64,000 nt of DNA. Source: an uncultured Thermoleophilia bacterium. Lineage in GTDB: Bacteria; Actinomycetota; Thermoleophilia; UBA2241. Both the position numbers and the translations under genes were made by a program. Of the stretch, positions 6,865 through 38,481 are shown in pieces (position 1 is the first letter of the stretch; every line of letters begins with the position of its first letter). The stretch spans positions 672,001 to 736,000 of the forward strand of contig CAVQSP010000014.1 of NCBI GenBank assembly GCA_963715985.1. The letters run 5' to 3'. The notes beneath the pieces were generated by a model, which searched no databases, had not been told where the DNA came from, and was given only the letters and a program-made list of their open reading frames with translations.

Positions 6865-7496
6865 TCCAGCAGGCCCTTCCTCATCGCGACCGCCACAGCA
6901 TGCGCGCGGTCCGAGACCTCGAGCGTGCGGTAGATAGACTCCAGGTGACTCTTGACGGTATCCACGCTGACGAAGAGGTGGAGCGCCACCTCGCGGTTGG
7001 TCGCGCCCGCCGCCACCATGCGGAGGATCTCCAGCTCGTGAGGCGTGAGCAACTCCTTGTCCTTCGCACGTTGTTCATCCCTCAGGAACGCCTTCACGAC
7101 GACCTCGTCGAAGTGGCGCCCTCCAGCGGCGACGTGACGGACGGCGCGGATCAACTCGTCTGCGGAGGCGTTCTTCATGACGTAGCCGCTCGCCCCCGAC
7201 TTGACGGCACGCAGCACGATCTCGTCGTCGTCGTGGACCGTCAGCACGATGATCTTCGGCAGACCCTCCGCGTCCCTGACCAGCTGCGGGATCACTTCGA
7301 GCCCGTGCATGCCGTGCATCTGCAGGTCGAGCAGCACGATGTCGCACTTGACGGTCTTGGCGAGGGTCACAGCCTCCTCGCCGCTGGACGCCTGGCCGAC
7401 GACCTGCAGGTCGTCGCAGGCGCTCAGCATGCCCTCCAGCCCGCGCCTGACGACCTCGTGATCGTCGACGATCAGTATGCGGATAGGTCTCACCAT
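6861..7496 (-). CDS. NarL/LuxR-family response regulator
   Basis: IRILIVDDHEVVRRG receiver, LLDLQM, C-terminal LTPHELEILRMVAAGATNREVA HTH. Confidence 0.92.
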   Translation of the reverse strand: MVRPIRILIVDDHEVVRRGLEGMLSACDDLQVVGQASSGEEAVTLAKTVKCDIVLLDLQMHGMHGLEVIPQLVRDAEGLPKIIVLTVHDDDEIVLRAVKSGASGYVMKNASADELIRAVRHVAAGGRHFDEVVVKAFLRDEQRAKDKELLTPHELEILRMVAAGATNREVALHLFVSVDTVKSHLESIYRTLEVSDRAHAVAVAMRKGLLE

Positions 7497-7522
7497 CACG
7501 CTGGTGCCGAGGAGCGGCCTTT

Positions 7523-10035: not shown

Positions 10036-10149
10036 GTGGTGTCTCACCCGAGGTAGTTCCGCAGAGTCCGATCAGGCTTCCACAACGGTAGACCGGAAGG
10101 AGGAGCCACATGGCTGGACCTGGGACGAAAGCCCAGCGCGAGCGCATGA
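10036..10149 (+). other. Candidate amber-containing leader ORF of mtmB1
   Basis: GAGGTGAGGAG then GTG GTG TCT CAC CCG AGG TAG (10054-56); read-through frame ends at TGA 10147-49. Confidence 0.4.
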
Positions 10150-11516
10150 CGGTCTTCGAGGCGTATGAGAGGGCCCGCAAGGGTCCCAAGGTGGACGAGG
10201 CGGTCTGGAACTTCGAGATCATCCCGCAGACCGCCAAGCGCCTCAAGGAGAAGTACGAGATCGAGATGGACAAGGCCGTCATGGTCCCCACCGATCCCGC
10301 GCTCATCAACAAGCTCTACAAGGCCGGTCTCGAGATGCTCGTCGAGTGCGGCGTCTACGTGATCAACACCGGCCGCGTCATCAAGTACACCGAGGAGGAG
10401 GTCCTCCTCGGCGTCGCCACCGCCCCCAAGGAGTGCATGCTCGGTGAGGGGCTCCACAGCCGGCGCATGTCCTACCGCTCCCACAAGGACACGCGCCCAC
10501 CGCTCGTCCAGGGTGGCCCCACCGGCGCCCCCTGCAGCGAGCAGTACTTCTTCCCGATCCACGAGTCCTACGTCAAGGAGGGCATCGTCGACTGCATCGT
10601 CGACGGCGTGCTCTCCACCGTGAACGGCTACAACCCCGCCCCCGACACCCCCTGGGAGGTCCTCGCCGGCCGCCAGGAGATCATGATGGTGCGCATGGCG
10701 CAGGCCAAGTGCGGCCGCGCGGGCATGGGCTTGTAGGGCCCCGAGACCACGCTGAACGCAGCCGCCACGATCTCGCAGGACTTCCCCGGCGGCATGCGGA
10801 CCACGGACAACCACGAGGTCTCGCAGCTGAATGAGTTGAAGACCGACCTAGGCGCGTTGCTCTTCACCTCTCATTACAATCTCTCTGCAGACACCGTGAT
10901 GGTCGAGCAGATGCCGATCTTCGGCGGCTTCGCCGGTGGTCTCGAGGAGACGACCATCGTCAACGTCGCGACGCATCTCAACTCGTTCGTCACGTTCGGC
11001 GGCACCTGGCATCTCGACGGTCCTGTGCACATGCGGTGGGGCATCACGACGACCAGGGAGGCCCTGGCCATCGCGGGTCACGCCATCATGGCGGTCAACT
11101 CCGTCTGGCCGCTCCTCAGCGGCAACCAGTACTACACGATGGCCGGCCCCTGCACGGTCATGTGCCTCCTGGAGACCGCCGCGCAGGCGATCACCGACAC
11201 CGCCAGCGGCCGCGAGATCATGAGCGGCGTGGCCGCCGCCAAGGGCGTCATCACCGACAAGACCACGGGCATGGAGGCGCGCTTCATGGGCGAGTGCGCG
11301 CACGCCGTCGCCGGCCTGCCCACGGAGCAGACCAACGAGATCCTCGACGCGCTGGTGAAGATGTACGAGGGCGACTACAAGACCGCCGACCAAGGCAAGT
11401 TCTTCCCCGAGTGCTACGACGTCGAGAAGGTCGTCCCGACCGACGAGTACCTCGAGGTCTACGACAAGGCCTGTGCGGCGATGAAGAGCCTGGGCGTCAA
11501 CTACAAGCTCTGGTGA
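10110..11516 (+). CDS. mtmB: Monomethylamine:corrinoid methyltransferase MtmB, copy 1, Pyl at in-frame TAG 10734-10736 (468 aa)
   Basis: ORFs 10110..10736 and 10794..11516 are in one frame; GRAGMGL-O-GPETT...HEVSQLNELK matches MtmB around Pyl; QGGPTG and EQMPIFGG motifs. Confidence 0.95.
10742..10823 (+). promoter_or_regulatory. PYLIS-like stem-loop 5 nt after the mtmB amber codon (same in copy 2, 19042-19123)
   Basis: CGAGACCACG pairs with CGAGGTCTCG; inner CGCA-GCCGCC pairs with GGCGGC-A-TGCG. Confidence 0.6.
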
Positions 11517-11564
11517 GCGGCACCCGGTCAGCGAACACGCCGAGTTTGAGGAGGCTCTAGGCAA

Positions 11565-12212
11565 ATGGGAGAAGCTGAGTTCATCAAAGAAGCGATCGAC
11601 GCGCTGTTGACCAGCGACAAAGAGAAGGCCGTGGACGTCGCCAACCGCGCCATCGCCGCCGGCGTGGCGCCGGACAAGCTGATGGCGGACGGCTTCGTGG
11701 TCGGCATCCGCCAGCTCGGCGACAAGTTCGACGAGGGCGAGGTCTACCTGCCCGAGCTGATGCTCGCGGCGGCGGCCATGGAAGCCGCCATGGCCATCTG
11801 CAACGCGGCCCTGCCGGAGGGCAAGAGCGAGACCCGCGGCGTCGTCGTCATCGGCACCGTCGAGGGCGACGTGCACGACATCGGCAAGGCCATCGTCTGC
11901 GCCTACCTGCGCGCCAACGGCTACGAGGTCCACGACCTCGGCCGCGACGTGCCCGTGGAGGAGTTCGTCGACAAGGCCGAGGCGGTCGACGCCGACGTCA
12001 TCGGCGCCAGCGCCCTGCTCACCGCCACGATGCGCAAGCAGTCGGAGATCGTCGCCGAGCTCAAGGACCGCGGTCTCCGCGACAAGTACAAGTTCGTCGT
12101 CGGCGGCGCCCCCTGCACGCAGGAGTACGCCGACTCCATCGAGGCCGACGCCTACGCGGCCGACGCCAGCGACGGCGTCAAGAAGATCGAGGAGCTGCTG
12201 GGCGCGAAGTAA
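11565..12212 (+). CDS. mtmC: Monomethylamine corrinoid protein, copy 1
   Basis: B12-binding motif GTVEGDVHDIGK, SALLTATM, VGGAP; directly after mtmB. Confidence 0.9.
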   Translation: MGEAEFIKEAIDALLTSDKEKAVDVANRAIAAGVAPDKLMADGFVVGIRQLGDKFDEGEVYLPELMLAAAAMEAAMAICNAALPEGKSETRGVVVIGTVEGDVHDIGKAIVCAYLRANGYEVHDLGRDVPVEEFVDKAEAVDADVIGASALLTATMRKQSEIVAELKDRGLRDKYKFVVGGAPCTQEYADSIEADAYAADASDGVKKIEELLGAK

Positions 12213-12250
12213 GTCGCCGCGCGCCCGGCAGGCCTGCCACACCTGCCGAC

Positions 12251-12287
12251 GGAGGGCGGCGCCCGCGGGAGCGGGCGCCGCCCTTCC
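12251..12287 (+). terminator. GC-rich hairpin after mtmC1 (no U tract)
   Basis: GGAGGGCGGCGCCCGC-ggga-GCGGGCGCCGCCCTTCC. Confidence 0.6.
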
Positions 12288-12415
12288 CGATTCAGGAGAC
12301 ATTGTGCTGAGAGTCACGTTCACAGAGGCACCTGGGGCGGCGAGCCCGTCGCCCAAACTCGGGGAGGTAGCCGAATGACGAGAGTTTCGGTCAAGCGCAA
12401 TGGAAGGAGGTCGTT

Positions 12416-12775
12416 TTGAGCACTCCTGATGTCGACTCGATAGTCGAACAAGCACTCGAGGCTGAAGTACACGGCGGCAAGCACGACCCGCGCATCGACA
12501 GGCTCTACCGGCAGGACGTCATCACCATCTACATCTTCGTCGTGGCGTTGTGGCTCGTGCTGTGGACGGTCTTCTTCTTGGTCGCCAACCCGGTCATCAC
12601 CGACGACAAACTGCGGTGGCTCCTGATCGGCCTCGGCGTCTTCGCCTCGATCTTCAACAGCGTCGGCATGATCTCCAACACGCGGAGGCTCAAGCACGAG
12701 GCTGTGCGCTTCTACTCCCAGGATCTGTTCTGGCAGGACGAGAAGAAGCGTCGTAAGGCGGAGGGGCTCCTGTGA
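12416..12775 (+). CDS. Small two-TM membrane protein
   Basis: AAGGAGG RBS, TTG start, two hydrophobic helices, host-like codon use. Confidence 0.8.
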   Translation: MSTPDVDSIVEQALEAEVHGGKHDPRIDRLYRQDVITIYIFVVALWLVLWTVFFLVANPVITDDKLRWLLIGLGVFASIFNSVGMISNTRRLKHEAVRFYSQDLFWQDEKKRRKAEGLL

Positions 12776-12805
12776 GCGCGTTGCGATCCCGAAAGGAGGC
12801 TCCCG

Positions 12806-13006
12806 TTGGCTGACCAAGAGAACGAGCAGCACATCATCGGCCGGCACGTGGCCGCGAGTGAAGAGGAGTGGGTCGCCTACAAGGACTACAAGGCGCCCAC
12901 GCAGAGCAGGCTCTGGCAGATCATCGACGTGCTCTTCGTGATCATCCTCTGCTACGTCTGCCTGCTGATCCCGATCCTGCTCACCGGCAAGATGATCGTG
13001 GGGTGA
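12806..13006 (+). CDS. Small single-TM membrane protein
   Basis: AAGGAGG RBS, TTG start, hydrophobic C-terminal helix. Confidence 0.75.
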   Translation: MADQENEQHIIGRHVAASEEEWVAYKDYKAPTQSRLWQIIDVLFVIILCYVCLLIPILLTGKMIVG

Positions 13007-13009
13007 CAG

Positions 13010-13351
13010 ATGAGACGACTGACTCTCACCCGGCTCGGTCCGGGACACAAGGCTCGTCGCGCCCTCGCACTCTTCACCCTCGTGGCTCTCTGCGTCACGC
13101 TGGTGCTGACGTGCGCAGGCGCATCTCTTGCCGCCGACGAAGGCCGGACGATCAACACGCCCGGAGGGGCGACGATCACGACGTCCGAGGGCATGGAGGC
13201 GCCGCAGCTCGACTACAAGTTCGTCTGGTGGAGCTTCATCCTCACGTTCGGGCTGCTCATCGTGTACTACGTGTGGATACTCCGCATCTCGGACAAGGAG
13301 TTCAAGAAGATCATCGACGCCCACTTCGGGCCCAAGCAGGACGGGAGGTGA
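13010..13351 (+). CDS. Small membrane protein with signal-like N-terminus
   Basis: Signal peptide-like segment ending ASLA; DYKFVWWSFILTFGLLIVYYVWILRISDKEFKKII helix. Confidence 0.75.
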   Translation: MRRLTLTRLGPGHKARRALALFTLVALCVTLVLTCAGASLAADEGRTINTPGGATITTSEGMEAPQLDYKFVWWSFILTFGLLIVYYVWILRISDKEFKKIIDAHFGPKQDGR

Positions 13352-13356
13352 CGGGC

Positions 13357-13551
13357 ATGGCATGGGTGAACTACGTCACGTGGGCTATCGCCATCCTGCT
13401 GCTAGTGTGGCTCGTCATCGACGCCTTCCGCATCGAGACCACCTACGACGCCGAGCTTCTCGTCAGCTCCGTGGAGGGTGAGATCGAGAAGGAGATCCTC
13501 GACCACGACGAGCTCGCCCACCTCAAGGACCAGTCGAGAGGGGGCATGTGA
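13357..13551 (+). CDS. Small membrane protein (64 aa) coupled to the permease
   Basis: GGAGGTG RBS, MAWVNYVTWAIAILLLVWLVIDAF...; stop overlaps the permease start; not separately listed in the ORF track. Confidence 0.8.
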   Translation: MAWVNYVTWAIAILLLVWLVIDAFRIETTYDAELLVSSVEGEIEKEILDHDELAHLKDQSRGGM

Positions 13552-14972
13552 TGGCGACAGACGCCGCAGCCGTGAGCGCTCAAGCCACGGCGGACGCCCC
13601 CAAACGCCTGAGCCTCCTGCGCGTCCTCGGCCCCATGCACGTGTGGGCTCTGGGCGTGGGGATCGTGCTCGTGGGCGAGTTCATGGGCTGGAACTTCACC
13701 GTGGCCAAGGGAGGCGTGTTCGGTGGCCTCGTGGCATGCTGGTTCTCCGGCATCCTCTACTCGTGCGTCGCCATGATCGACTCCGAAGTGAGCTCCACCG
13801 TGGCGTCGGCAGGCGGGCAGTACGCGCAGGCCAAGCACATCCTCGGCCCCCTTGCGGCCTTCAACATCGCCCTGTTCATCATCTTCGAGTACTGCATGCT
13901 CTCGGCCGGCGACGCGCTTGTCATCGGAGCGCTGGTCAACAGCCTCAACCCGGTGCTCAGTCCGACGCCCTTCGTGGTGCTCACCATCGCCTTCCTGGCG
14001 TGGCTGAACTACCGGGGAGTGCACACCACGCTGACGTTCAACTTCATCATCACGGCCATCGCGTTCATCACGATCCTCGTGCTGATCGTCGGCGCCCGGT
14101 TCTGGGATCCCGGCTACATCACGCAGACCAAGGAGCTGTTCGCGCAGCCTCCGGGGAGCGCTGATCCCAAGATGCCCTACGGCTGGCTCGGCATCCTCGC
14201 CGCGCTCCAGTTCGGCATCTGGTACTACCTCGGCATCGAGGGCACGTGCCAGACGGCGGAAGAATGCCGCTCGGCACCGCGGGCGCTGCCGGTGGGCACG
14301 ATGTCCGGCCTCATCACCCTGCTGATCGCCGCCACGCTCACGTGGTACATCTGCACCGCCCTCGTCAACTGGATCACCCTGGGCTCGTCTGTGTACCCGC
14401 TCTACGACGCGGCGGTCAACACCGGCAAGGACTGGTTGATGGTCACCCTGTGGATCGGCTCGCTGCTGAGCTGTCTGGCGTCGTCCAACGGGTGCATCAA
14501 CGACGCCTCGCGAGCGTGGTTCGCGATGGGGCGCGACCAGTTCATCCCGAGGTGGTTCGGCGGCGTCCACCCCCGCTACAAGACGCCGTACCGCGCCATC
14601 CTGTTCCTCGTGCCGATCATGATCGCCTTCGGCTACACCGGGCTGCTCGACCAGGTCATCACCTTCTCGATCATCTCCGGCTGCCTCATCTACTTCATCA
14701 TGCCGCTCAACATGATCCGCTTCCGTCGGCTCTACCCGATGGACTCGATCAAGCGAGGGTACGTGTCACCGTTCCATCCGCTGCCGTCGTACGTGCTGTT
14801 CCTGTTCGTGCTCCTCACGTTCCTCGCCATGTACTTCGGCTACTGGCGCAACCTCGTGGCGGCGCTGGTCTTCTACGGCATCTGTTCGATCTGGTTCGTG
14901 CTGCACCGGTACAAGTTCGTCGACCGCACCAAGCTGTACACGATGCCGTGGCCACGGCCTAAGGGCTACTGA
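13548..14972 (+). CDS. APC permease, ethanolamine/methylamine (MtbP-like) type
   Basis: LGPMHVWALGVGIVLVGEFMGWNF, YLGIEG..AEE, SRAWFAMGRD; substrate inferred from context. Confidence 0.85.
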   Translation: MMATDAAAVSAQATADAPKRLSLLRVLGPMHVWALGVGIVLVGEFMGWNFTVAKGGVFGGLVACWFSGILYSCVAMIDSEVSSTVASAGGQYAQAKHILGPLAAFNIALFIIFEYCMLSAGDALVIGALVNSLNPVLSPTPFVVLTIAFLAWLNYRGVHTTLTFNFIITAIAFITILVLIVGARFWDPGYITQTKELFAQPPGSADPKMPYGWLGILAALQFGIWYYLGIEGTCQTAEECRSAPRALPVGTMSGLITLLIAATLTWYICTALVNWITLGSSVYPLYDAAVNTGKDWLMVTLWIGSLLSCLASSNGCINDASRAWFAMGRDQFIPRWFGGVHPRYKTPYRAILFLVPIMIAFGYTGLLDQVITFSIISGCLIYFIMPLNMIRFRRLYPMDSIKRGYVSPFHPLPSYVLFLFVLLTFLAMYFGYWRNLVAALVFYGICSIWFVLHRYKFVDRTKLYTMPWPRPKGY

Positions 14973-14989
14973 CAGGAGAGGAGGACGTC

Positions 14990-15433
14990 GTGTTCGAGAC
15001 TCTGCTGGTAGCCACCGACGGCTCCAAGGCGGCTCAGAAGGCCGTCGTCTGGGCGGTCGAGTTCGCCAAGCGACACGACTCCCGGCTCATCATCTGCAAC
15101 GTGACGCCGGAAGCGCGGACGAAGCTCAGGCGCACCGAGCCCAACCCGCCGCCGGAGGGCGATGTCTCGCCCGAGGACGCCGGCGACATCGTCTCCGCCG
15201 AGGCCTTGCATAGGGCGGAGAGGCTGGCGAAGAAGGCAGGGGTGAAGTACGAGCTCGATGAGGTGTACGGCAGGAACATCGCGGCTACCATCGCCAAGGA
15301 GGCGATGGCGGTCGGCGCCGACCACATCATCATCGGGTCGACCGGGATCACCGCGCTCACCACGTGCGTGCTCGGCTCGGTCGCACAGAACGTGGTCCAC
15401 TACGCCCACTGTCCCGTGACGGTGGTCCGGTAG
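14990..15433 (+). CDS. Universal stress protein
   Basis: LLVATDGS, IIIGSTG, LGSVAQNVVHYAHCPVTVV; ends in TAG. Confidence 0.92.
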   Translation: MFETLLVATDGSKAAQKAVVWAVEFAKRHDSRLIICNVTPEARTKLRRTEPNPPPEGDVSPEDAGDIVSAEALHRAERLAKKAGVKYELDEVYGRNIAATIAKEAMAVGADHIIIGSTGITALTTCVLGSVAQNVVHYAHCPVTVVR

Positions 15434-15479
15434 ATGAACATCCGGGGCCGCAGCCGCGGCGGAGGGAGGTGACGGCGTC

Positions 15480-16148
15480 ATGGACACTGGACTCGCCGTC
15501 AGACTGGCCATCGTCGTGGCTGCGGCCCTGCTGCTGACCTACGTCTTCCTCGCCTACGTGCGGCGAGACCGCAAGAAGACCCAGCACATGCTCGACCCGT
15601 TCCTCAACGCTATCGACCACCCGCAGGTCGGACGCAGCCCTTGGGGCTACGAGTTCCTCGAGGGGTCGTTCGGCGGGCGCCCGGTGCGGGTGAGCCTGAT
15701 CCCGGACTCGCTGATCACCCGCACGTTGCCGACGCTCTGGCTGGAGGTGCGCTGGGCGCGGCCCAGCGATGCCTTCCTGTGCGTCATCACGCTGTGCAAC
15801 GGCATGGAGTACTTCGCCGACGAGGTCGACGAGGGCAGCCTGCTCGTCACGCCCAGCACGTGGCCCCAGTCTGTGCGGGTGCGCGGCAAGGGCCCGGCAA
15901 GCTCGGCCCTGGCGCGTCGTCTGAACGGCTTCGATGTCGACGCGTACAAAGACCTCAAGATGGTCTCGCTCAGCGAGACCGAGACCAAGGTGATCATGCG
16001 CTGTGCCCGTGGGGACTTGCAGCTCTACAGGGTGTTGCGCTCCGCGAGTTTCCCTGAGGATTCGGTGAAGCCGGAGCTGGTGGAAGAGACCGTCCGGGTA
16101 CTCCGTGACATCGACCGCATGCTCGAGAGCGAAGAGGAGGTCGCGTGA
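15480..16148 (+). CDS. Membrane-anchored hypothetical protein
   Basis: GGAGGT RBS, N-terminal TM helix, in operon. Confidence 0.75.
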   Translation: MDTGLAVRLAIVVAAALLLTYVFLAYVRRDRKKTQHMLDPFLNAIDHPQVGRSPWGYEFLEGSFGGRPVRVSLIPDSLITRTLPTLWLEVRWARPSDAFLCVITLCNGMEYFADEVDEGSLLVTPSTWPQSVRVRGKGPASSALARRLNGFDVDAYKDLKMVSLSETETKVIMRCARGDLQLYRVLRSASFPEDSVKPELVEETVRVLRDIDRMLESEEEVA

Positions 16149-16693
16149 TGGGCAGGACCCGCAGCGCCAAGCCGCAGAAGGAGGCGCCGAAGGGCGAGCT
16201 CAAGAAGCCGCGCCCGGTATGGTTCGTCACCCTCATGGCGTTCGTGCTGCCCGGCAGCGGGCAGATGTTCAACGGTGCGCCGGCGCGCGGCATCATCATG
16301 CAGTTCGGCATGGTCTTCGGCGGCTACGTCTCCTACCAGCTGACCACGCCCGAGATCTCGCCCATCGGCCGGCTCGCCGGCGGCCTGCTGGTCTGGGTCT
16401 TCTCCATCGTCGACGCCAACGGCATCGCCAACCGGCGCGTCAGGGCGTGGGCCCGCATCGAGGCGGCACAAGCCGGGAAGCCGTCGCAGAACACCGGGAG
16501 TCCGGCTCCGAGCCGGCGTGCCAAGAACGGAACGTCGGGCAAAGCCCCCAAGGGCGCCGCCCGCAAGAGGCGCGTCGACAGCGCCGCTCCACGCGGGGCC
16601 GTGGTCGCCGGCGCGGACATGGGACCCGCCTCGATCACACCCATGCCCGGGGGCGGGACCTCCGCGGCGGTAGCGGCTTCAGAGCCTCACTGA
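16145..16693 (+). CDS. Membrane protein with LPGSGQ motif and low-complexity tail
   Basis: VLPGSGQMFNG..RG motif, three hydrophobic segments; overlaps the previous stop. Confidence 0.75.
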   Translation: MMGRTRSAKPQKEAPKGELKKPRPVWFVTLMAFVLPGSGQMFNGAPARGIIMQFGMVFGGYVSYQLTTPEISPIGRLAGGLLVWVFSIVDANGIANRRVRAWARIEAAQAGKPSQNTGSPAPSRRAKNGTSGKAPKGAARKRRVDSAAPRGAVVAGADMGPASITPMPGGGTSAAVAASEPH

Positions 16694-16762
16694 GGCCGCT
16701 CGCGGCCAACGTGAAGCGCGAGGCGCCCGATCGTCGACCGTGACCGGTAGGGTCCCCGCCGC

Positions 16763-17098
16763 TCACGCGAAGATGCGGCGCCCGAAGATCACCACCACGA
16801 CGCCGACCATGGTGATGGCCGCACCGATGAAGTCGTAGCGGTCGGGGGTGTTTCCGTCGATCGCCCAGCCCCACACCATCGCCCCGACGAGGAAGACACC
16901 TGCGTAGGCCGCGTACACGCGCCCGTACGCCCCCTCCGGCTGATACGTCTGGATGATGGCGTAGAAGAGCAGGGCGGCCAGGCCGACCAGAGCGAGAAAC
17001 GCCGTCCCGCCGCCCTTGAGCCAGCGCCAAAAAGCGTAGGTCCCTCCCAACTCACCGAGGGCGGCAAGGATGTAGATCGCGAAGGTCTTGACGATCAC
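16763..17098 (-). CDS. YnfA-family (SMR-like) small membrane protein
   Basis: AALGELGG.YAFW.W, YGRVYAAYAGVF, DG.TPDRYD motifs. Confidence 0.88.
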   Translation of the reverse strand: MIVKTFAIYILAALGELGGTYAFWRWLKGGGTAFLALVGLAALLFYAIIQTYQPEGAYGRVYAAYAGVFLVGAMVWGWAIDGNTPDRYDFIGAAITMVGVVVVIFGRRIFA

Positions 17099-18336
17099 GG
17101 CGTCACCTCTCAGATGCGTGCGGGGTGGTCACATCCCCGGTGGGACGTGGTGGGACGGCTGCTTCTGGGCCGCGACCGTTCGACTGGTCGCACGATGCGT
17201 GGAGCGCGGCGCCTCTCCGTTGTCGCGGCACTCCTCAGAGACGGTCCTCCTCACGGCACCTGCGTCCCGCCGATGACCCGGCTGGGCCGGCGTCGTCAGC
17301 GTAGTGGCTGGAGAGGCGAACCTCAATCGCCGCCCGGACTGCGCGCCGAGCGGCGCCGGCTGTGCCGCCCTCAGGCGACCGACCCAGGCACTCACCGGTC
17401 CTTCGCCCGAGGTGGAGTTCAGCCCTCAGCCCTCTGCACACCCTCCTGTCTTCTGCCGGGATGGTCCCGGAGGCATCGCCGTGGCCTGGTGCCGAAGGGA
17501 GGATGACTGCTGACGGAGGCGCGATGCACATCCGCGAGAGGCGATCAGGCCAACTGCGGACGAGCGCGTATGCGAGTTGACCGCCCGGAAACCGGTCGAG
17601 ACGGTGCGGGAGCGGCGCGCCTCTCTGCGGGAACGCGACGTCGACGCCATCGTGCGGCCGGCGGGGAGCCGTTGTTGGGGCACACACGTAGCGGGGCGGG
17701 GCTCGATGCACCGAGACGGACTGGGCGCGCCAGGGCGTCCGCGGTGACGAGACCGTGTTGACGATGGAGACCGAAGAAGATGCCACGACGAAGCCGGCTG
17801 AGCTGGAGTCCGCCGGTAAGCATCACGTGCGGATCGGGAGGACCGGTGGAGCCGCGGCGAACTGGCCGATGTGACGCACGGCCACACGATCGCCGCCTGA
17901 CCGGACGGCGCCCCGTGGGGGCGCCATCCGCCTGAGAACCGCGCCATCTCGGCGGGCCGGGGCGTCGTTGGGCATGCGCTCCGGGCCAGGATGTGGCGCC
18001 TTTTCCGAGGGCGGCCGCAGAGAGCATCCGCGCCCCTGTACAAGCGGGAAGCACTTGACCGGCGGCGTGGGACAACGCGTATACTCGTGCTCCACCGGCA
18101 CAGCGTCTTCCCGCCGGCGCGCGATGTCCTCGCCGAGCGGCGCACAAGGAGGCGCGACCCTGGTTCGTAGGCGCAGCACTGGTCCTGGGGCTTCGGACCG
18201 ATCCAGTCGGCCGGGGAGATGTGTCCCGGGCCGCCCGATGCGCGCCCGCACCGGCAGTAGCCCGACGGTGGCCCGCGTCACCGTCGCCGTCCATTCCGCA
18301 CACCATGGTCCCTTCGCGGACCAGGCTGGCCAGGAG

Positions 18337-18390
18337 GTGATGCCTTCCGTCCGATAGTCGGGATGCACGTCGCCAACCTAGACAAGCTAG
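18337..18390 (+). other. Candidate leader ORF of mtmB2 with three in-frame TAGs
   Basis: AGGAG then GTG ATG CCT TCC GTC CGA TAG; further in-frame TAGs at 18379 and 18388. Confidence 0.45.
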
Positions 18391-18409
18391 GCACGAGAGG
18401 AGGAGCCAC

Positions 18410-19816
18410 ATGGCTGGACCTGGGACGAAAGCCCAGCGCGAGCGCATGACGGTCTTCGAGGCGTATGAGAGGGCCCGCAAGGGTCCCAAGGTGGACGAGG
18501 CGGTCTGGAACTTCGAGATCATCCCGCAGACCGCCAAGCGCCTCAAGGAGAAGTACGAGATCGAGATGGACAAGGCCGTCATGGTCCCCACCGATCCCGC
18601 GCTCATGAACAAGCTCTACAAGGCCGGTCTCGAGATGCTCGTCGAGTGCGGCGTCTACGTGATCAACACCGGCCGCGTCATCAAGTACACGGAGGAGGAG
18701 GTCCTCCTCGGCGTCGCCACCGCCCCCAAGGAGTGCATGATCGGTGAGGGGCTGCACGGCCGGCGCATGTCCTACCGCTCCCACAAGGACACGCGTCCAC
18801 CGCTCGTCCAGGGCGGCCCCACCGGGGCTCCCTGCAGCGAGCAGTACTTCTTCCCGATCCACGAGTCCTACGCCAAGGAGGGCATCGTCGACTGCATCGT
18901 CGACGGCGTGCTCTCCACCGTGAACGGCTACAACCCCGCCCCCGACACCCCCTGGGAGGTCCTCGCCGGCCGCCAGGAGATCATGATGGTGCGCATGGCG
19001 CAGGCCAAGTGCGGCCGCGCGGGCATGGGCTTGTAGGGCCCCGAGACCACGCTGAACGCAGCCGCCACGATCTCGCAGGACTTCCCCGGCGGCATGCGGA
19101 CCACGGACAACCACGAGGTCTCGCAGCTGAATGAGTTGAAGACCGACCTAGGCGCGTTGCTCTTCACCTCTCATTACAATCTCTCTGCAGACACCGTGAT
19201 GGTCGAGCAGATGCCGATCTTCGGCGGCTTCGCCGGTGGTCTCGAGGAGACGACCATCGTCAACGTCGCGACGCATCTCAACTCGTTCGTCACGTTCGGC
19301 GGCACCTGGCATCTCGACGGTCCTGTGCACATGCGGTGGGGCATCACGACGACCAGGGAGGCCCTGGCCATCGCGGGTCACGCCATCATGGCGGTCAACT
19401 CCGTCTGGCCGCTCCTCAGCGGCAACCAGTACTACACGATGGCCGGCCCCTGCACGGTCATGTGCCTCCTGGAGACCGCCGCGCAGGCGATCACCGACAC
19501 CGCCAGCGGCCGCGAGATCATGAGCGGCGTGGCCGCCGCCAAGGGCGTCATCACCGACAAGACCACGGGCATGGAGGCGCGCTTCATGGGCGAGTGCGCG
19601 CACGCCGTCGCCGGCATGCCCACGGAGCAGACCAACGAGATCCTCGACGCGCTGGTGAAGATGTACGAGGGCGACTACAAGACCGCCGACCAAGGCAAGT
19701 TCTTCCCCGAGTGCTACGACGTCGAGAAGGTCGTCCCGACCGACGAGTACCTCGAGGTCTACGACAAGGCCTGTGCGGCGATGAAGAGCCTGGGCGTCAA
19801 CTACAAGCTCTGGTGA
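18410..19816 (+). CDS. mtmB: Monomethylamine methyltransferase MtmB, copy 2, Pyl at TAG 19034-19036
   Basis: As copy 1; five amino-acid differences. Confidence 0.95.
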
Positions 19817-19864
19817 GCGGCACCCGGTCAGCGAACACGCCGAGTTTGAGGAGGCTCTAGGCAA

Positions 19865-20512
19865 ATGGGAGAAGCTGAGTTCATCAAAGAAGCGATCGAC
19901 GCGCTGTTGACCAGCGACAAAGAGAAGGCCGTGGACGTCGCCAACCGCGCCATCGCCGCCGGCGTGGCGCCGGACAAGCTGATGGCGGACGGCTTCGTGG
20001 TCGGCATCCGCCAGCTCGGCGACAAGTTCGACGAGGGCGAGGTCTACCTGCCCGAGCTGATGCTCGCGGCGGCGGCCATGGAAGCCGCCATGGCCATCTG
20101 CAACGCGGCCCTGCCGGAGGGCAAGAGCGAGACCCGCGGCGTCGTCGTCATCGGCACCGTCGAGGGCGACGTGCACGACATCGGCAAGGCCATCGTCTGC
20201 GCCTACCTGCGCGCCAACGGCTACGAGGTCCACGACCTCGGCCGCGACGTGCCCGTGGAGGAGTTCGTCGACAAGGCCGAGGCGGTCGACGCCGACATCA
20301 TCGGCGCCAGCGCCCTGCTCACCGCCACGATGCGCAAGCAGTCGGAGATCGTCGCCGAGCTCAAGGACCGCGGTCTCCGCGACAAGTACAAGTTCGTCGT
20401 CGGCGGCGCCCCCTGCACGCAGGAGTACGCCGACTCCATCGAGGCCGACGCCTACGCGGCCGACGCCAGCGACGGCGTCAAGAAGATCGAGGAGCTGCTG
20501 GGCGCGAAGTAA
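19865..20512 (+). CDS. mtmC: Monomethylamine corrinoid protein, copy 2
   Basis: DVHDIGK B12 motif; one amino-acid difference from copy 1. Confidence 0.9.
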   Translation: MGEAEFIKEAIDALLTSDKEKAVDVANRAIAAGVAPDKLMADGFVVGIRQLGDKFDEGEVYLPELMLAAAAMEAAMAICNAALPEGKSETRGVVVIGTVEGDVHDIGKAIVCAYLRANGYEVHDLGRDVPVEEFVDKAEAVDADIIGASALLTATMRKQSEIVAELKDRGLRDKYKFVVGGAPCTQEYADSIEADAYAADASDGVKKIEELLGAK

Positions 20513-20550
20513 GTCGCCGCGCGCCCGGCAGGCCTGCCACACCTGCCGAC

Positions 20551-20593
20551 GGAGGGCGGCGCCCGCGGGAGCGGGCGCCGCCCTCCTCTTTCT
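20551..20593 (+). terminator. Intrinsic terminator after mtmC2
   Basis: 16-bp perfect stem followed by TCTTTCT. Confidence 0.7.
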
Positions 20594-20697
20594 GGACACA
20601 TTCCTGCGGGCCCGAGGTGCGGGACGGTCGTGCGGTGGGTACCGTAACCTGTACGCGGCCTCAGCGAGCCCGATCGACCCCGAGTGGAAGGACACGA

Positions 20698-20907
20698 ATG
20701 GCGGTGATCCTGTATTCGCGGCCCGACTGCCCCTACTGCGATGCCGCGCGTCGCTACCTGGACGACCGTGGTGATCCCTACGAGGAGCGCGACATCACCG
20801 TGGACCCAGAGGCAGAGCAGGCCGTGGCGGCCATCACCGGCGGCCCGCTGACCGTACCGATCACCGTGGAGGACGGCGACGTGAGGGTCGGCTTTCCGTA
20901 CACCTGA
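20698..20907 (+). CDS. Glutaredoxin-like protein (NrdH type)
   Basis: ILYSRPDCPYC, TVP, GF motifs. Confidence 0.85.
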   Translation: MAVILYSRPDCPYCDAARRYLDDRGDPYEERDITVDPEAEQAVAAITGGPLTVPITVEDGDVRVGFPYT

Positions 20908-21398
20908 GGCGGGGCGCGAGGGCGCACGCGCTGGATCTTCCAGCACGACCCCGAGCGCAGGCGCGCGTGACGCGCCACCATCCTCCGGCAATCGGCGCCG
21001 CCCATGTTCCGGAATGGCAAAAGAGATGTCGGTATGTGCGCCAGATTGGCGCATATGGAGCCTGCACCGTGACGATTCGTGAACTTCTGCACGTGCAAAC
21101 CTTGACTGGGCCAGCGTGCATCCATACATTGTGTCGCACACGTGAAGCCCGCAATGCCCGTACGGAGTACTTGCGGGCTTCGTGAGCGAACTAGGCCAAT
21201 GACTCCGAACGCCGGCAGCCGTATCCCGCCGTCGGCAGAGGGAGGCCCGTCCTGTGACGGCGCAGCACGCGATGCGATCCATCGAGCTGGTCTGGTCTGT
21301 GGGGGCGCTCACGCCCCAGCTGAGCCGCGCCGCCGCGCGCCCCCCGCCCGCCACTACCCTGTCTCCGCGCTTTCTCACCACAATGGAGGTGTGACGCA

Positions 21399-22800
21399 GT
21401 GAGCAAGATCTGGACCCGAATGGGTGACGGCAACGCCGTCGAGCTGACCCCAGACGAACTCCGCCAAGACATCATCGCGGCGACTGAAGACGCCGCGGAC
21501 AAGGGACACATCCCGGCCCTTGAAGAGAACGAGATCGACCACCTGTACGACCTGTTCGCGGCACCGTACCGCATCATCGGCGTCGAGCCCGGCCACGAAG
21601 TGCCGCTGACCAAGGACGAAACGGCGTGCACCCTCGTCTCCTCGCAGCTGTCGAGTGGTTCACACCTGGCGATAAGCCGCGAAGACGCGGTCGAAGTCTT
21701 CGAGCGCGTCTTCGCGTTCGACACTATGGAACTGGGCTGGATCGATTACTCGTTCAAGCCGGCGAAGCCCATGGTCTCGTTGGACCAGGTCTCCATCGAA
21801 CGCATCATGGCGACCACCGTGTTCCCGGTGCTCTACGGCGCCATGCCGAATATGGGCCTGTACTACACGCCCGACGGCCCGTACATCAACCCTGCAGACC
21901 TGCTCGGCATGATGAAGGTCGAGGAGGCGCGCGAGGAGGAGATGAAGGCCTCCGAGCTGTGCATGGAGGACATGATCTTCGTCTGCGAGCGCATGAACGA
22001 GATCGGCGCCGACGGCATCGACTTCGACACCACGGCCTCGGCCGGGTGACGCCGACTTCCTCGCGACCCTCAAGACGGTCGAGCACCTGAAGAAGACCAC
22101 CGACCTCGGCATCGAGATGGGCATGTCGGGCGAGTTCATCCTCGGCATGCACGGCGAGGTCGAGTACAACGGCACGCGACTTGCGGGCCTCTTCCCGCAC
22201 CAGCAGCTCAAGTGCGCGGAACAGGCAGGCGTCGACATCTTCGGCCCCGTGGTCAACACGAAGACCAACAAGTCCTGCGCTTGGAACGTGGCCCGCGCTG
22301 TGACCTTCGTCAAGGAGGTCTGCAAGCAGGCCACCATCCCGATCCACGCGAACGTGGGTATGGGTGTGGGCGGCACGCCGATGTTCGAGACGCCGCCGAT
22401 CGACGCTCTCAGTCGCGCGAGCGTGGCCATGGTCGAGATCGCCAAGGTCGACGGCTTGTAGGTCGGCGTGGGCGATCCCTACGGCATGTCCGTAATGCAT
22501 TCGATCGCATCCGGAATGGGTGGCATCCGCACCGCTGGAGACCTGGTGGCAAGGATGGAGCTCAATTACCGGATGAGGCTCCCCGAGGCGAAGAAGTACG
22601 TGGCCGACAAGCTCGGCATCAGCGCGTTCGACCTGTCGGACTCCACGGTCATGCGCAACCTGCGCGAGGAGCTCGACATCGGCGTCATCGAGGCGATCCC
22701 CGGCCTCTCCAAGGGGTACACCGCCAAGGCGCGTATCGCCGACCTTCTCGACATCAAGATCAACGGTGTCGAGCGGCAGAAGGCGAAGATGCCGGCCTGA
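21399..22800 (+). CDS. mtbB: Dimethylamine:corrinoid methyltransferase MtbB, Pyl at TAG 22459-22461; one extra G at 22044-22046
   Basis: [49 protein letters not shown]; removing one G gives a 466-aa frame. Confidence 0.92.
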
Positions 22801-22857
22801 TGACGCGCTCTGTCGTCCAGCAGGTTTGGCCAAATCTGACCCACGGAGGTCACAGGC

Positions 22858-23502
22858 ATGGCAAATGAAGACTTCTATGCGGACGCGGCTGCCGCTATCC
22901 GCGCGTGCGACGCCGACAAGGCGGCTCAGGTAGCGACGGACGCCCTTGCGGCCGGCGTGGCGCCTGACGACATGCTGAAGCTGGGGTTCATCCCGGGCAT
23001 CAGCAAGATGGGCGATCTCTTCGAGCGCGGCGAGGTGTTCCTCCCCGAGCTCGTCCTCGCAGCCAACGCCATGACGGCGGCCGCCGCGGTGTGCAACGCG
23101 GCTCTCCCCGAGGGCGAAGCGGAGGCGAAGGCCACCGTCGTTATCGGCACCGTCCAGGGTGACGTGCACGATATCGGCAAGACCATCGTCGTCGCCTTCC
23201 TGAGGGCGAACGGCTACGACGTGTACGACCTCGGCCGTGACATCTCGAGCGACAAGTTCATCGCTGCCGCCGAGGAGCGCAAGGCCACGGTCATCGGCAT
23301 GAGCGCTCTGCTCACCACCACCATGCGCGAGCAGACGCGCATCATCGAGGCCCTCAAGGCCGCGGGTCTGCGCGACAAGTACAAGGTCATCGTCGGCGGC
23401 GGCGCCTGCACGCAGCAGTGGGCCGACAAGATCGGCGCGGACGCCTACGCCGAAGACGCCAACGACGGCGTGCGCAAGGTCAACGAGCTGACGGGCAACT
23501 GA
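22858..23502 (+). CDS. mtbC: Dimethylamine corrinoid protein
   Basis: GTVQGDVHDIGK, SALLTTTM; follows mtbB. Confidence 0.88.
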   Translation: MANEDFYADAAAAIRACDADKAAQVATDALAAGVAPDDMLKLGFIPGISKMGDLFERGEVFLPELVLAANAMTAAAAVCNAALPEGEAEAKATVVIGTVQGDVHDIGKTIVVAFLRANGYDVYDLGRDISSDKFIAAAEERKATVIGMSALLTTTMREQTRIIEALKAAGLRDKYKVIVGGGACTQQWADKIGADAYAEDANDGVRKVNELTGN

Positions 23503-23644
23503 TCCCGCGCTCGTAGAAGAGCACACCGGCGGCGCGGCCGGGCCTGCGAGAGCAGCCCCGGCCGCGCCGCCTCCCTCGTTCTGGGGCATTCCGTTCTGCG
23601 CGACCACTCCGATCGCCAACAGAGCCGCCAGTCCGCCTCGTCGA

Positions 23645-23871
23645 CCGGCCGAAACGGGGCAGCGGGCTGCCAACCCGGGGAGCGGACGGGGAGGCCGGCT
23701 CACACGGCGTTCACAGCCCTCTGAGGGGCCTGGAGAGGGCCGGAGGTGGGGAGAGGGCCGGCCGAAACGGGGCAGCGGGCTGCCAACCCGGGGAGCGGAC
23801 GGGGAGGCCGGCTCACACGGCGTTCACAGCCCTCTGAGGGGCCTGGAGAGGGCCGGGAGGTGGGGGAGAGG
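23645..23871. repeat. Tandem duplication of a ~113-bp non-coding unit
   Basis: CCGGCCGAAACGGGGCAGCGGGCTGCCAACCC... begins at 23645 and 23758; copies differ only in G-run lengths. Confidence 0.92.
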
Positions 23872-23924
23872 CCCCCTTTGGGCCTCGAGACCCCATAACG
23901 GCTCGGTGACGCTCGCAACCAAGA

Positions 23925-23959
23925 GGGCGCCCCGGCCGCGTGGAGCGGCCGGGGCGCCC
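23925..23959. terminator. Hairpin between convergent mtbC and mttC
   Basis: GGGCGCCCCGGCCGC-gtgga-GCGGCCGGGGCGCCC. Confidence 0.65.
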
Positions 23960-24010
23960 ATCTGCTTCAGGCGCTCATTGCCCGGGCGAGAGTCGCCCGA
24001 TGGAACGGGC

Positions 24011-24637
24011 TCAGCCCATGAGCTCCTTGCACTTCTCGACGCCGAGCGAGGCGTTGGCGCCGTAGGCGTCCGCGCCCACTTCGGCGGCCCACTCGGCCGA
24101 GACCGGGGCGCCGCCGATGATGACCTTGATCTTGTCGCGCAGGCCGGCGTCCTTGAGCGCCTGGATCGTCTCCGGCATCTTGGGGATCGTCGTCGTGAGC
24201 AGGCCGCTCATCCCGAGGATGTCGGCGTCGTGCTCCTTGCAGGCGGCGACGAGGTCGGCAGGGGTGATGCCCTTGCCGAGGTTGATGACCTCGAAGCCGG
24301 CGCCGGACAGCAGCATCGCGACGAGGTTCTTGCCGATGTCGTGCATGTCGCCCTCGACGGTGCCGATGACGACCGTGCCGAGGCTGCCGCCGCCCTCACC
24401 GAGGAGCGGCTTGATGATGTCGAGGCAGGCCTGCATGGTGCGGGCGCTGAGCAGCACCTCGGGGATGAACTTGTCGCCGCTCTTCATCTGCTCGCCGACC
24501 ACGTCCATGCCGGGGAGCAGGGCGTTGTCGAGGATCTCGCGGGCCGCGGCACCGCCGTCGACCAGCGACTGGGTCGCGGCCGTGGCGGCGTCGTTGCCGT
24601 CGATGATCATCTGCTTGAGGGACTCAAAGTCTGCCAT
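24011..24637 (-). CDS. mttC: Corrinoid protein cognate to MttB
   Basis: GTVEGDMHDIGKNLV, SGLLTTT, IIGGAPV. Confidence 0.85.
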   Translation of the reverse strand: MADFESLKQMIIDGNDAATAATQSLVDGGAAAREILDNALLPGMDVVGEQMKSGDKFIPEVLLSARTMQACLDIIKPLLGEGGGSLGTVVIGTVEGDMHDIGKNLVAMLLSGAGFEVINLGKGITPADLVAACKEHDADILGMSGLLTTTIPKMPETIQALKDAGLRDKIKVIIGGAPVSAEWAAEVGADAYGANASLGVEKCKELMG

Positions 24638-24685
24638 AGGATCCTATGTCCTCCATGTCGTGGCTTCGTTCCGGAGCCCTGGGAT

Positions 24686-26161
24686 TCAGGCGACTCCCGC
24701 GTCCTTCTCGGATTTTACGACGATGGCCCTGATTTCGGCCACGACGTCACTCGGCAGCTCGGCCACCTTGTGGCCGGCCACCAGCTCCTTGGCCTTCTCG
24801 TTGCAGCGGGAGTACATGTCGGTGCTGCCGTCCATCTCCCACTCTTCGCGGACGCGACGGTCGATGTTGCCCGCCTTGGACTGGTGCTCACGCATCAGCT
24901 TCAGGGTGCTCATCCTCGAGAGGAAGTCCTCCTCGGACCCCACTTCGATGATCTCATCCACCATCAGCGTCGCGTCGTTCGTGGGGATGCCACGAAGGAT
25001 GAACTTACAGATTCGCGCGATATCGTTGTCCATGACGAGCGTGGCGTAGTCGATGGTGACGCCCGACTCGATCATCCCGGCTCCGTAGATCAGGTTGAGC
25101 CCTCCCAACGCTGGCAGGAGGCCGGTGATGGTCTTCTCGTGGGCGCACTGCGCGTCGCCGCCGAGCTTGGAATCGCTCTACAACCCGGCGCCGTAGGTCG
25201 GCAGGCCGTAGAAGCGGCCCATCTCTGCGACGGCGGCGCTGATCATGCCGAGCTCGGGGGTGCCGACGGTCGCCGCGGCGCGCTGCAGGTCGAAGGCGGT
25301 GGTGGAGGTGCCGTAGACGCACTTGGCGCCCTTCTCGGCGAGCTGCGCGAGGACGATGCCGCCGAGCACCTCGGCGTTGTGCGTGACCATGGTGCCGGCC
25401 AGGGTGACCGGGGCCGAGCCGCCGGACATGGCCATGGAGAGCGGCATGGCGATCTGATGGGCGCGAGCCGCCTCGATGATGCAGCCGCTGAACTCGCCCA
25501 TGAGCTTGAGCGGGCTGACCGGGCAGCTGAGGAAGAGGAGCATCGGGCGGTCGGCCAGCTTGTCGTGACCGCCGGCCACGGCGGCCGTGGCGTCGATGTG
25601 CAGGCGGGCGCCGTGGTGACCGAGCGCGAGGCTGCAGATCGGCTTCGTGGTGTTGAGCAGCGACTGCTCGATGAGGTGCGCCTCGGCGACCTCCGGCGGC
25701 ACGTCGGTGGCCGTCACGGCGATGGTGTAGACCTCGATATCGTCGAGCGCGTCGACGAGGCGGGCGAGGTCGGCGACGTCCTTCTTCGTGGTCGGGCGCA
25801 GCTTGCCGTCCCACGGATCCACGGCCTTGACGCCCTCGGCGAAGTTGGTGAAGGCGACGCGCCGGCCCTCCATGACGAGGTCCTTGTCCGGCGTACGGCC
25901 GCAGAGCGTGACCGTGGAAGGCGCCCAGCTGATGCACTCCTCGAGGACGTGCGACGGGATCCTCACCTTGCGCGTCGAGCGGTCGACCTTGCAGCCGCCG
26001 TCGGCGAACAGGTCGATCGCCTCGTCGTCCTCCACCCAGAGGCCGGCCGTCTCGAGCACCTCGACGGTGCCCCAGTGGATGGCCTGCCTCTCGTCTTCGG
26101 AGAAGACATCGATGCCGATGCCTCCCTGGTGGTTGATGCCTGACCGTTGACTTCGAATCAT
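24686..26161 (-). CDS. mttB: Trimethylamine:corrinoid methyltransferase MttB, Pyl at TAG 25178-25180 (491 aa)
   Basis: ORFs 25178..26161 and 24686..25108 are in one frame; YGAGL-O-SDSK..DAQCAHEKT, CPVSPL, APVTLAGTMVTHNAEVL. Confidence 0.95.

Positions 26162-38461: not shown

Positions 38462-38481
<20 letters not shown>
37534..38481 (+). CDS. miaA: tRNA dimethylallyltransferase
   Basis: GATALGKS, DSMQVYRG, GGSGLY, RRVIRALE, ARRQMTW; ends in TAG. Confidence 0.93.

Follow-up and report, generated by a model that had tools for sequence, protein, structure and literature searches.

How does a cell that uses UAG both as a stop codon and as the codon for pyrrolysine (Pyl) choose between the two meanings? 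This question is raised by a stretch of 64,000 nucleotides (nt) from the genome of an uncultured Thermoleophilia bacterium (assembly GCA_963715985.1, contig CAVQSP010000014.1, positions 672,001 to 736,000; hereafter the window), in which four genes coding for methylamine methyltransferases each contain a single in-frame TAG. A preliminary description had claimed these four TAGs at their exact positions, their coincidence with the Pyl residue of known enzymes, family-typical sequence beyond them, and a corrinoid gene with a DxHxxG motif next to each gene, and our profile matches and alignments bear out all of this. The explanation that we consider fairly likely as a whole is that of a native Thermoleophilia island for anaerobic methylamine demethylation, whose Pyl UAGs would be marked for read-through in the mRNA by a leucine codon on their 5' side and a stem-loop on their 3' side. 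The four genes are listed below (window coordinates, gene ends being given with the TAG read through as a sense codon; aa, amino acids).

10110-11516, plus strand: mtmB1, Pyl monomethylamine methyltransferase, 468 aa; TAG at 10734-10736 (codon 209), TTG before the TAG
18410-19816, plus strand: mtmB2, Pyl monomethylamine methyltransferase, 468 aa; TAG at 19034-19036 (codon 209), TTG before the TAG
21399-22800, plus strand: mtbB, Pyl dimethylamine methyltransferase; TAG at 22459-22461 (codon 354 without an extra base, see below), TTG before the TAG
24686-26161, minus strand: mttB, Pyl trimethylamine-type methyltransferase, 491 aa; TAG at 25180-25178 (codon 328), TTG before the TAG

The mtmB product gives a full-length match to PF05369 (~665 bits) and that of mttB a match of 611 bits to TIGR02369 (cut-off 525), both running past the TAG, and the mtbB match to PF09505/TIGR02368 falls into two halves. 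The mtmB and mttB TAGs align with the Pyl residues of Methanosarcina barkeri MtmB (Pyl202; 1L2Q/1NTH) and MttB (Pyl334; 7XCL), and the equivalent of MttB Tyr364 is kept. No MtbB structure was found in the PDB; judging from the profile match ranges, the mtbB TAG corresponds to position 356 of TIGR02368, the Pyl column of Pyl-dependent MtbB. A corrinoid gene with the motif D-x-H-D-I-G follows every one of the four methyltransferase genes. As had been anticipated, gene callers halve these Pyl genes: databases carry a 353-aa form that ends at the TAG.

The machinery for Pyl decoding, presumed in the preliminary description, is encoded on a contig other than that of the window (in the following, G, L and C numbers denote genomes, loci and contigs of this genome, itself G000). 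Contig C13 carries tRNA-Pyl(CUA) at C13:555126 together with pylB, pylC, pylD, pylSn and pylSc, i.e. all six components of a pylTSBCD cassette of the bacterial type, in which PylSn is a separate gene from PylSc. Profile scores (bits/cut-off) are 316/178 for PylSc, 124/51 for PylSn, 318/248 for PylC, 200/150 for PylD and 305/348 for PylB, the last lying below its cut-off because pylB is frameshifted in this assembly. The genome also possesses a tRNA for selenocysteine (tRNA-Sec) and one SelB, and no selenocysteine sites were found by our own motif search of the genome. From the sequence data, insertion of Pyl at these UAGs appears almost certain.

The host had been described as Thermoleophilia-like, and the window RecA is indeed 91-96% identical to RecA of five named Thermoleophilia metagenome-assembled genomes (MAGs). 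The island is not chimeric, since the same order recA-recX...mtmB...mtbB...mttB...rny is found in G053, G035 and G033. One extra base splits mtbB near 22043-22047, as the frame repair in the preliminary description had supposed; it is missing in 5/5 orthologues and in contigs of three of four public runs, the fourth being uninformative, and one of these contigs (1467 bp) shows only 10 other differences. An assembly error is the most likely source of this frameshift. Indels are frequent in the assembly (6 of 27 tested gene bins are split between frames, pylB and acsB being also hit), and the genome is 88.8% complete with 7.29% contamination. The two mtmB-corrinoid units form a 2206-bp duplication with 99.2% identity (18398-20602 against 10098-12303); it is likely to be recent, because the family relatives fetched show a single mtmB copy at the locus, in either of the two contexts found here, and a merged strain mixture could also be the source of the two copies.

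Concerning the meaning of UAG elsewhere in the genome, TAG ends 274 of 1440 high-confidence genes (~19%, by our own gene caller), including genes that we recognize as tufA, rpsJ, rplL and secY. pylD itself ends in TAG, and so do pylSc or pylSn in many relatives. Release factor 1 (RF1) is intact, with both PVT and GGQ present, and no enrichment of backup stops was found after TAG gene ends. In archaeal codes where every TAG means Pyl, TAG is depleted as a stop; no such depletion is seen here. UAG is stop and Pyl in the same cell. In pyl neighbourhoods of a second family of the class, f4 (L308-L316), TAG ends 62 of 123 predicted genes (Pyl-split halves included), against 69 of 327 in the host family.

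The first candidate mark is the codon directly before the TAG. G000 has 23 Pyl TAG sites (2 in mtmB, 11 in mtbB and 10 in mttB), of which 17 are preceded by Leu, and in 17/17 of these the codon is TTG, which makes up 2.4% of Leu codons genome-wide. Where Leu precedes the other TAG gene ends (n=38), it is written CTG 22 times, CTC 15 times and TTG once. A purine stands at +4 in 23/23 Pyl TAGs against 54% of TAG gene ends overall, at a site that is constrained by amino acids. The preference extends well beyond this genome: over 301 genomes of the class, the mtbB motif has TTR-TAG 342 times (59 genomes) and CTN-TAG 6 times (6 genomes), and in f4 21/21 sites have TTA, as do 4/4 intact mtmB, TTA representing 0.3% of Leu codons in the f4 loci. 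A pattern scan of metagenomes that left the pre-TAG codon free gave 80 loci, of which 67 MtbB were kept and 13 non-MtbB dropped; among the 67, the pre-TAG Leu is TTR in 55 and CTN in 4. Sorted by GC content at third codon positions (GC3), TTR is found in 19/19 loci at 0.85 or above (background 19/680), 27/31 between 0.5 and 0.85 (background 25%) and 9/9 below 0.5 (background 38%). None of the other mtbB Leu columns exceeds 5% TTR, and the -2 codon varies freely where the -1 codon does not.

The pre-TAG codon occupies the P site during decoding of the UAG, and the pattern is therefore explained most simply by the identity of the peptidyl-tRNA; P-site effects on termination are known from work on E. 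coli. Two other causes were tried and rejected. Avoidance of DNA words exists (observed/expected 0.22 for CTAG and 0.64 for CTGTAG), yet CTG-TAG ends 22 and CTC-TAG 15 ordinary genes. As for folding, an in silico swap to CTG left the hairpin unchanged in all 12 genes that form the scored pair, and shifted the accessibility of the UAG both ways (mtmB not being among the scored genes). A genome-wide list of GGN-TTG-TAG-R, inspected by eye, gave no obvious non-coding partner that could act as an antisense guide. Just 3' of the island, in the usual recA-rny block, lie genes for a MiaB-like protein (34845-36170) and MiaA (IPPT; 37534-38481); these enzymes modify tRNAs reading UNN codons, including UUR Leu and possibly tRNA-Pyl.

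The second candidate mark is a hairpin with an A-G-purine-N loop, lying 74-116 nt 3' of the Pyl TAG in all three enzyme families. In the window it is found at these positions:

10830-10875, plus strand: mtmB1 hairpin, AGGC loop at 10850, +116 from the TAG
19130-19175, plus strand: mtmB2 hairpin, 3' of the TAG at 19034-19036
22525-22556, plus strand: mtbB hairpin, AGAC loop at 22539, +80; it is the second hairpin of Rfam PYLIS_2
25094-25111, minus strand: mttB hairpin, AGGG loop from 25103, +77

In the three families, GC at fourfold-degenerate sites drops from ~0.94 to 0.73-0.83 over codons +11 to +50, and single synonymous sites are fixed within this region. The evidence for structure is clearest in mtbB, where a stem spanning +66 to +97 carries an AGAY loop. 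By corrected mutual information over 68 near-full-length genes, the third-position pairs of this stem take ranks 1, 2 and 3 of 85,905. GGA encodes the loop Gly in 99% of the same genes, whereas in 24 other Gly columns its share does not exceed 25%. Over 120 sequences, to which six CTN loci were added deliberately, 88.7% of cells are paired (79.5% when shuffled, 28-45% when slid) and double changes number 155 against 61. The hairpin is present in 98/98 genes with TTR before the TAG, 11/11 with CTN and 3/8 with ATA or GTA. Codons -227 and -66 from the mtbB TAG form the fourth-best covarying third-position pair (88% pairing).

In mttB, a stem of the GUUGGC/GCCAAC type closes AGGN at +74 or +77 in 46/46 Pyl copies, against 0/65 non-Pyl homologues. 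There are 6 double-change cells, a value reached in 0/500 shuffles, and 3 pairs changed on both sides. The window copy is not the lowest-energy fold in a 41-nt test, and has a pair probability of 0.98-0.99 in 32-nt and ~160-nt contexts. Paralogs that have the same A-L-A-G-A-N peptide and no TAG (L277, L280, L278) have lost the loop A. A gene of the Pyl clade at G000 C3:63079-64503, with Leu (CTC) at the Pyl column, keeps the loop A and 4/6 pairs, and is a natural loss of Pyl with a partly decayed hairpin.

The mtmB version is a long stem with an AGGN loop at +116, present in 15/16 genes; two frameshifted Pyl mtmB genes mis-scored as non-Pyl (L074 and L303) were dropped before counting. Rare synonymous codons (background AAT 5%, CAT 9%, TTG 2.4%) sit where pairing needs them. 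A strict hairpin descriptor finds 21 of the 23 Pyl TAGs of G000, 13 of 509 other TAG ends and 19 of 694 TGA ends. The structure may reach beyond the phylum: two hairpin-bearing loci share 90% clusters with proteins of Desulfobacterales and Desulfocicer, and one locus lacking the hairpin clusters with a Methanosarcinaceae protein. Comparative support for the two-part signal can be considered strong for mtbB, fair for mttB and weak for mtmB, and the mtbB and mttB hairpins very probably represent real RNA structures under selection.

We propose that selection acts on two mRNA marks, which the preliminary description had overlooked: a UUR Leu codon that occupies the P site and an AG-loop stem-loop 74-116 nt further 3'. 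Together they would tilt the competition between Pyl-tRNA and RF1 toward read-through, the hairpin acting via a factor or a ribosome contact that reads the loop A. That the role of the hairpin is to raise read-through seems to us slightly better than an even bet. One alternative accepts Pyl and denies the hairpin any effect on decoding: it would shield the mRNA left exposed while the ribosome waits at the UAG from Rho and nucleases, and so secure the 3' half of the gene and the corrinoid gene. The drop in fourfold-site GC described above would fit, as would the presence of Rho motifs, the long and variable spacing between TAG and hairpin, and the hairpin bases at ~+64, +64 to +66 and +94 to +96, which lie one ribosome footprint apart (a post hoc observation, n=3); ribosomes dwelling at UAG are described for M. 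acetivorans in the accessible text of PMC13663744. Shielding needs no invariant loop base, but all three families have the loop A fixed at a synonymous site and non-Pyl paralogs have lost it; the UUR codon is left unexplained, and we regard this alternative as unlikely. Still less probable, and by a wide measure, is that the hairpin is a regulatory operator coupling enzyme output to Pyl supply, with UUR as a bldA-like brake. PylSn, which contacts the variable loop of tRNA-Pyl (Y-A-G-G), might for instance bind the hairpin as a mimic of this loop. PylSn is here a free-standing gene, the tRNA-Pyl variable loops of the family (CAGG/UAGG) are like the mttB and mtmB hairpin loops, and f4 uses TTA at every sampled site; but the mtbB loop is AGAY, and the enrichment of TTG extends to loci in which this codon is not rare, such as the 9/9 of low GC3 against a background of 38%.

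The patterns might also have no RNA function and be by-products of shared ancestry, protein constraint or avoidance of words such as CTAG and CTRYAG. The paralogs do share ancestry, and CTAG is clearly and CTGTAG mildly avoided, as given above. Against this stand the ordinary genes that end in CTG-TAG and CTC-TAG, the freely varying -2 codon next to a -1 codon that is constrained, the occurrence in three enzyme families without significant sequence homology, and the top-ranking compensatory pairs, which largely refute it for mtbB; we judge it highly improbable. Finally, assembly indels in mtbB, pylB and acsB and the contamination value could suggest that the TAGs are true stops, or the island a chimera or a cluster of pseudogenes. 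A single TAG on the Pyl column in hundreds of relatives, conserved synteny, the complete pyl machinery and the absence of the indel from independent contigs make this explanation one that can practically be dismissed.

Several observations count against read-through marked by a UUR codon and an AG-loop hairpin. The 5' rule is soft: 6 of the 23 sites in G000 are non-Leu, 28 of 46 sampled mttB have GCG before the TAG, and other mttB clades have GCG or GGT. The mtmB hairpin is 95% paired with no compensatory change in 14 sequences, and its support is weaker for this reason. Most of the 65 non-Pyl MttB controls are less than 38% identical, related genomes are not independent so that counts overstate the number of events, and the strict descriptor was built from these same genes after viewing them and misses both window mtmB copies. 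Concerning a factor, the genome has a single SelB wing-3 gene, no second SelB being found, and the 27 pyl neighbourhoods show no new RNA-binding family, leaving PylSn as the only dedicated RNA-binding candidate. Bacterial SECIS elements are placed at a far shorter spacing than 74-116 nt. In archaea, no motif is essential for Pyl insertion according to the available portions of PMC13663744 and PMC12626013. Pyl insertion and both marks are, moreover, deduced from comparison of sequences. With these points in mind, we advance only tentatively the broader idea that bacterial Pyl users have a two-part mRNA signal, made of a P-site UUR codon and a 3' AG-loop hairpin read by a trans factor, possibly PylSn, which would have arisen at different distances in three unrelated families, would be common to Actinomycetota and Desulfobacterota, and would be a counterpart of SECIS.

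The remaining genes of the island are the following:

11565-12212, plus strand: corrinoid protein (MtmC-like), TIGR02370 229 bits (cut-off 215)
19865-20512, plus strand: corrinoid protein, copy 2, 3' of mtmB2, Pfam profile match
22858-23502, plus strand: corrinoid protein (MtbC-like), TIGR02370 220 bits
24011-24637, minus strand: corrinoid protein (MttC-like), 3' of mttB, TIGR02370 171 bits, under the cut-off of 215
20617-20907, plus strand: glutaredoxin-like gene, conserved 5' of mtbB
5245-9724, minus strand: APC-family permease, LuxR/NarL response regulator and GAF-HisKA_3 histidine kinase (Pfam), divergent from mtmB1
12416-16693, plus strand: small proteins with hydrophobic stretches, APC permease, Usp and two unknown proteins, conserved in G053, G035, G033, G066, G018 and G048

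The permease/regulator/kinase trio is a candidate sensor; a similar trio adjoins mtmB in G035, G056 and G041, where the order is histidine kinase, response regulator, permease. The segment 12416-16693 is probably an amine uptake module, its APC permease (13548-14972) giving an ethanolamine-permease-like profile match below cut-off; an open reading frame of 222 aa has only hypothetical proteins as ESM Atlas matches. An additional APC permease at 28552-30190 is split over two frames, and relatives likewise give two aligned pieces. Between the convergent corrinoid genes, at 23645-23868, lie two tandem copies of a 111-nt GC-rich unit that are 95% alike.

What would these enzymes do? With the help of Pyl, MttB-, MtbB- and MtmB-type enzymes would demethylate tertiary, secondary and primary amines and transfer the methyl group to the adjacent corrinoid protein. 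A pterin-binding methyltransferase encoded elsewhere would hand this group on to tetrahydrofolate and so feed the Wood-Ljungdahl pathway (methylotrophic acetogenesis), ammonium being released at the final demethylation step. Contig C11 carries cooS, acsB (frameshifted), acsC and acsD as well as genes for an AcsE-like methyltransferase and an AcsV-like activator. Elsewhere the genome encodes another pterin-binding protein and another RACo activator, and acsB is present in 60 of the 89 genomes of the family. Neither dsrA nor an MtrH-family second methyltransferase (MT2) was found in G000. This scheme is weakened by fhs, which was not found with two motifs in a genome that is 88.8% complete, and by the window MttB, which has Ala/Glu at M. 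barkeri Gly110/Thr111. Gly110 is 100% conserved in Pyl MttB according to the accessible part of Li et al. (PMC9842639). The Ala recurs in the mttB orthologues L062, L066 and L068, and Gly110 is kept in most other MttB copies, including paralogs on C3, C4 and C13. Because of this Ala, the substrate of the window MttB may be other than trimethylamine (TMA). With the second methyltransferase and the corrinoid activator also absent from the window, the earlier claim that TMA is demethylated fully to ammonia goes beyond the data. Many MtbB paralogs fall in a well-supported high-GC clade (in a quick tree only) and may act on substrates beyond dimethylamine. Taken together, the assignment of substrates and methylotrophic acetogenesis appears probable from gene content.

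PylSc relatives occur in 33 GTDB genomes, of which 29 have Thermoleophilia in their title; the five MAGs compared by RecA belong to this set. In 89 genomes and 11 genera of the host family, probably UBA2241, we identified PylSc in 82, PylB in 78 (over cut-off in 68), the MtbB family in 87, Pyl-type MttB over cut-off in 84, and MtmB-family genes in 70, about 13 of the TAG type (11 high-scoring TAG matches plus two frameshifted). In a sample of the class, PylSc is present in 51/55 genomes of the same family, 9/55 of f4 and in none of ten other families, and in a sample of the phylum in 2/261, both of the same class; four f4 genomes carry all three Pyl gene types on one contig. A non-Pyl MtmB type recurs in most genomes of the family, often a few kb from a Pyl mtbB. 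G000 has 5 MtmB-family genes and ~50 MttB-family loci or fragments without TAG; its loci or fragments of the MttB superfamily number ~60 genome-wide. Two genomes of the same genus, G023 and G024 (98% complete, 1.7-1.8 Mb), are missing PylSc, PylB and MtbB; these small genomes have likely lost the whole Pyl trait. Near-identical DNA occurs in 14 wetland metagenome runs, and two wetland RNA libraries gave contigs over parts of mtmB, mtbB and mttB, which indicate presence there and not expression level.

What the pyl neighbourhoods have in common is limited to a corrinoid protein and a radical SAM protein, some of them also containing an aldehyde oxidoreductase module. In G000 the radical SAM and corrinoid genes stand between pylSn and pylSc (C13:557245-559041, L003), and they recur in 21 and 25 of the 27 neighbourhoods, respectively; in the family, pylSc is placed after an uppP-like gene and an amidase gene. 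Directly 5' of pylB (C13:548463-551810) lie genes for an aldehyde:ferredoxin oxidoreductase, a ferredoxin, a small MoaD-like protein (recognized by eye) and a nitroreductase-like protein, conserved in many relatives.

A genome-wide read-through screen for other Pyl proteins gave no convincing non-methyltransferase gene. Two candidates, a multiheme cytochrome (C11:79942-81738) and an unknown protein (C14:142261-143109), lack the stop in relatives (genomes with a match, 5/5 and 2/5); not being conserved, these TAGs represent error or tolerated drift. The remaining candidates of the screen lie at C17:305487, C20:285800 and C13:626126.

The gene set itself is real and of a known kind, and Pyl use in the class is already briefly in print, so that the novelty attributed to it in the preliminary description was overstated. 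In the portions available, Guo 2022 (PMC9630628) lists two actinobacterial PylSc, one of them from a Thermoleophilia bacterium, and Ellenbogen 2023 (PMC10805028) reports expressed Pyl-mttB and Pyl-mtbB in Actinobacteriota MAGs, naming Bog-752 (UBA2241) and RBG-16-64-13, with at least one split Pyl-type mtmB of a UBA2241 MAG in a supplementary BLAST table. The accessible text of Zhang and Gladyshev 2007 (PMC1976440) finds no common RNA structure in bacterial Pyl genes, and that of Shalvarjian 2025 (PMC12626013) states that the mechanism for targeted Pyl insertion is not known; excerpts of further papers on the topic were also consulted (PMC3639795, PMC11764691, PMC7438021, PMC11264602). In this literature, mostly non-subscription, we found the 5' codon rule, a hairpin common to the three families and the family-wide spread nowhere reported. 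The two marks make the choice between codons in cells with a dual UAG accessible to tests by single-nucleotide synonymous changes. If they act as proposed, they could improve amber suppression in genetic code expansion and provide a portable module for its site-specific use. Moreover, this Thermoleophilia family, which as a whole has Pyl enzymes and in many cases the Wood-Ljungdahl pathway, probably acts as a methylamine sink in wetlands; its 23-site enzyme set in G000 would be among the largest, and this widespread wetland family could compete with methanogens for methylamines.

How does this island compare with known systems? The pairs MtmB/MtmC, MtbB/MtbC and MttB/MttC of Methanosarcina belong to the same families, with a TAG at the Pyl column and adjacent corrinoid genes. 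The acidic residues E205, E229 and E259 of M. barkeri MtmB, which we take to have roles in the active site, and MttB Tyr364 align with the window proteins. Unlike in Methanosarcina, the host is a bacterium, and the likely acceptor of the methyl group is tetrahydrofolate instead of coenzyme M. Leu stands before Pyl in each of the three families here, whereas M. barkeri has Val (MtmB) and Ser (MttB) at this place. As far as the accessible parts of PMC10805028, PMC8318568 and PMC1976440 tell, the Olavius symbiont delta-1, marine Deltaproteobacteria and Stordalen Mire Actinobacteriota likewise have split PylSn and PylSc, several Pyl mtbB/mttB copies, Wood-Ljungdahl genes, tRNA-Sec and TAG still in use as a stop. 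Delta-1 has 8 Pyl proteins and no MtmB in the portion of PMC1976440 available, against the 2 mtmB, 11 mtbB and 10 mttB sites of G000.

Structured RNA 3' of the Pyl UAG is also what the PYLIS families of Rfam describe (RF01982 for mtmB, RF02509 for mtbB and RF02510 for mttB). The window scores 79 bits with RF02509 (PYLIS_2; cut-off 36), where the mtbB hairpin is already drawn as the second hairpin, and 50 bits with RF02510 (PYLIS_3; cut-off 38), whose consensus fold differs from the covarying mttB hairpin. With RF01982 (PYLIS_1) it scores 53.8 bits, below the cut-off of 70, and the mtmB hairpin lies mostly past this 100-nt model. Rfam keeps three separate families, whereas here an AG-loop hairpin is shared among them, and the 5' codon rule is in none of the three. 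Pyl-tRNA uses ordinary elongation factors according to the available part of PMC13663744. Compared with SECIS-SelB, the codon is UAG and not UGA, the spacing is 74-116 nt and variable, and the genome has one SelB wing-3 gene. The mttB hairpin may resemble the upper stem of E. coli fdhF. The two-part signal is a candidate for a bacterial UAG-discrimination signal and a variant of the PYLIS and SECIS idea: in SECIS-SelB, as proposed here, a stop codon is singled out for recoding by a hairpin within the coding region whose apical loop is constrained.

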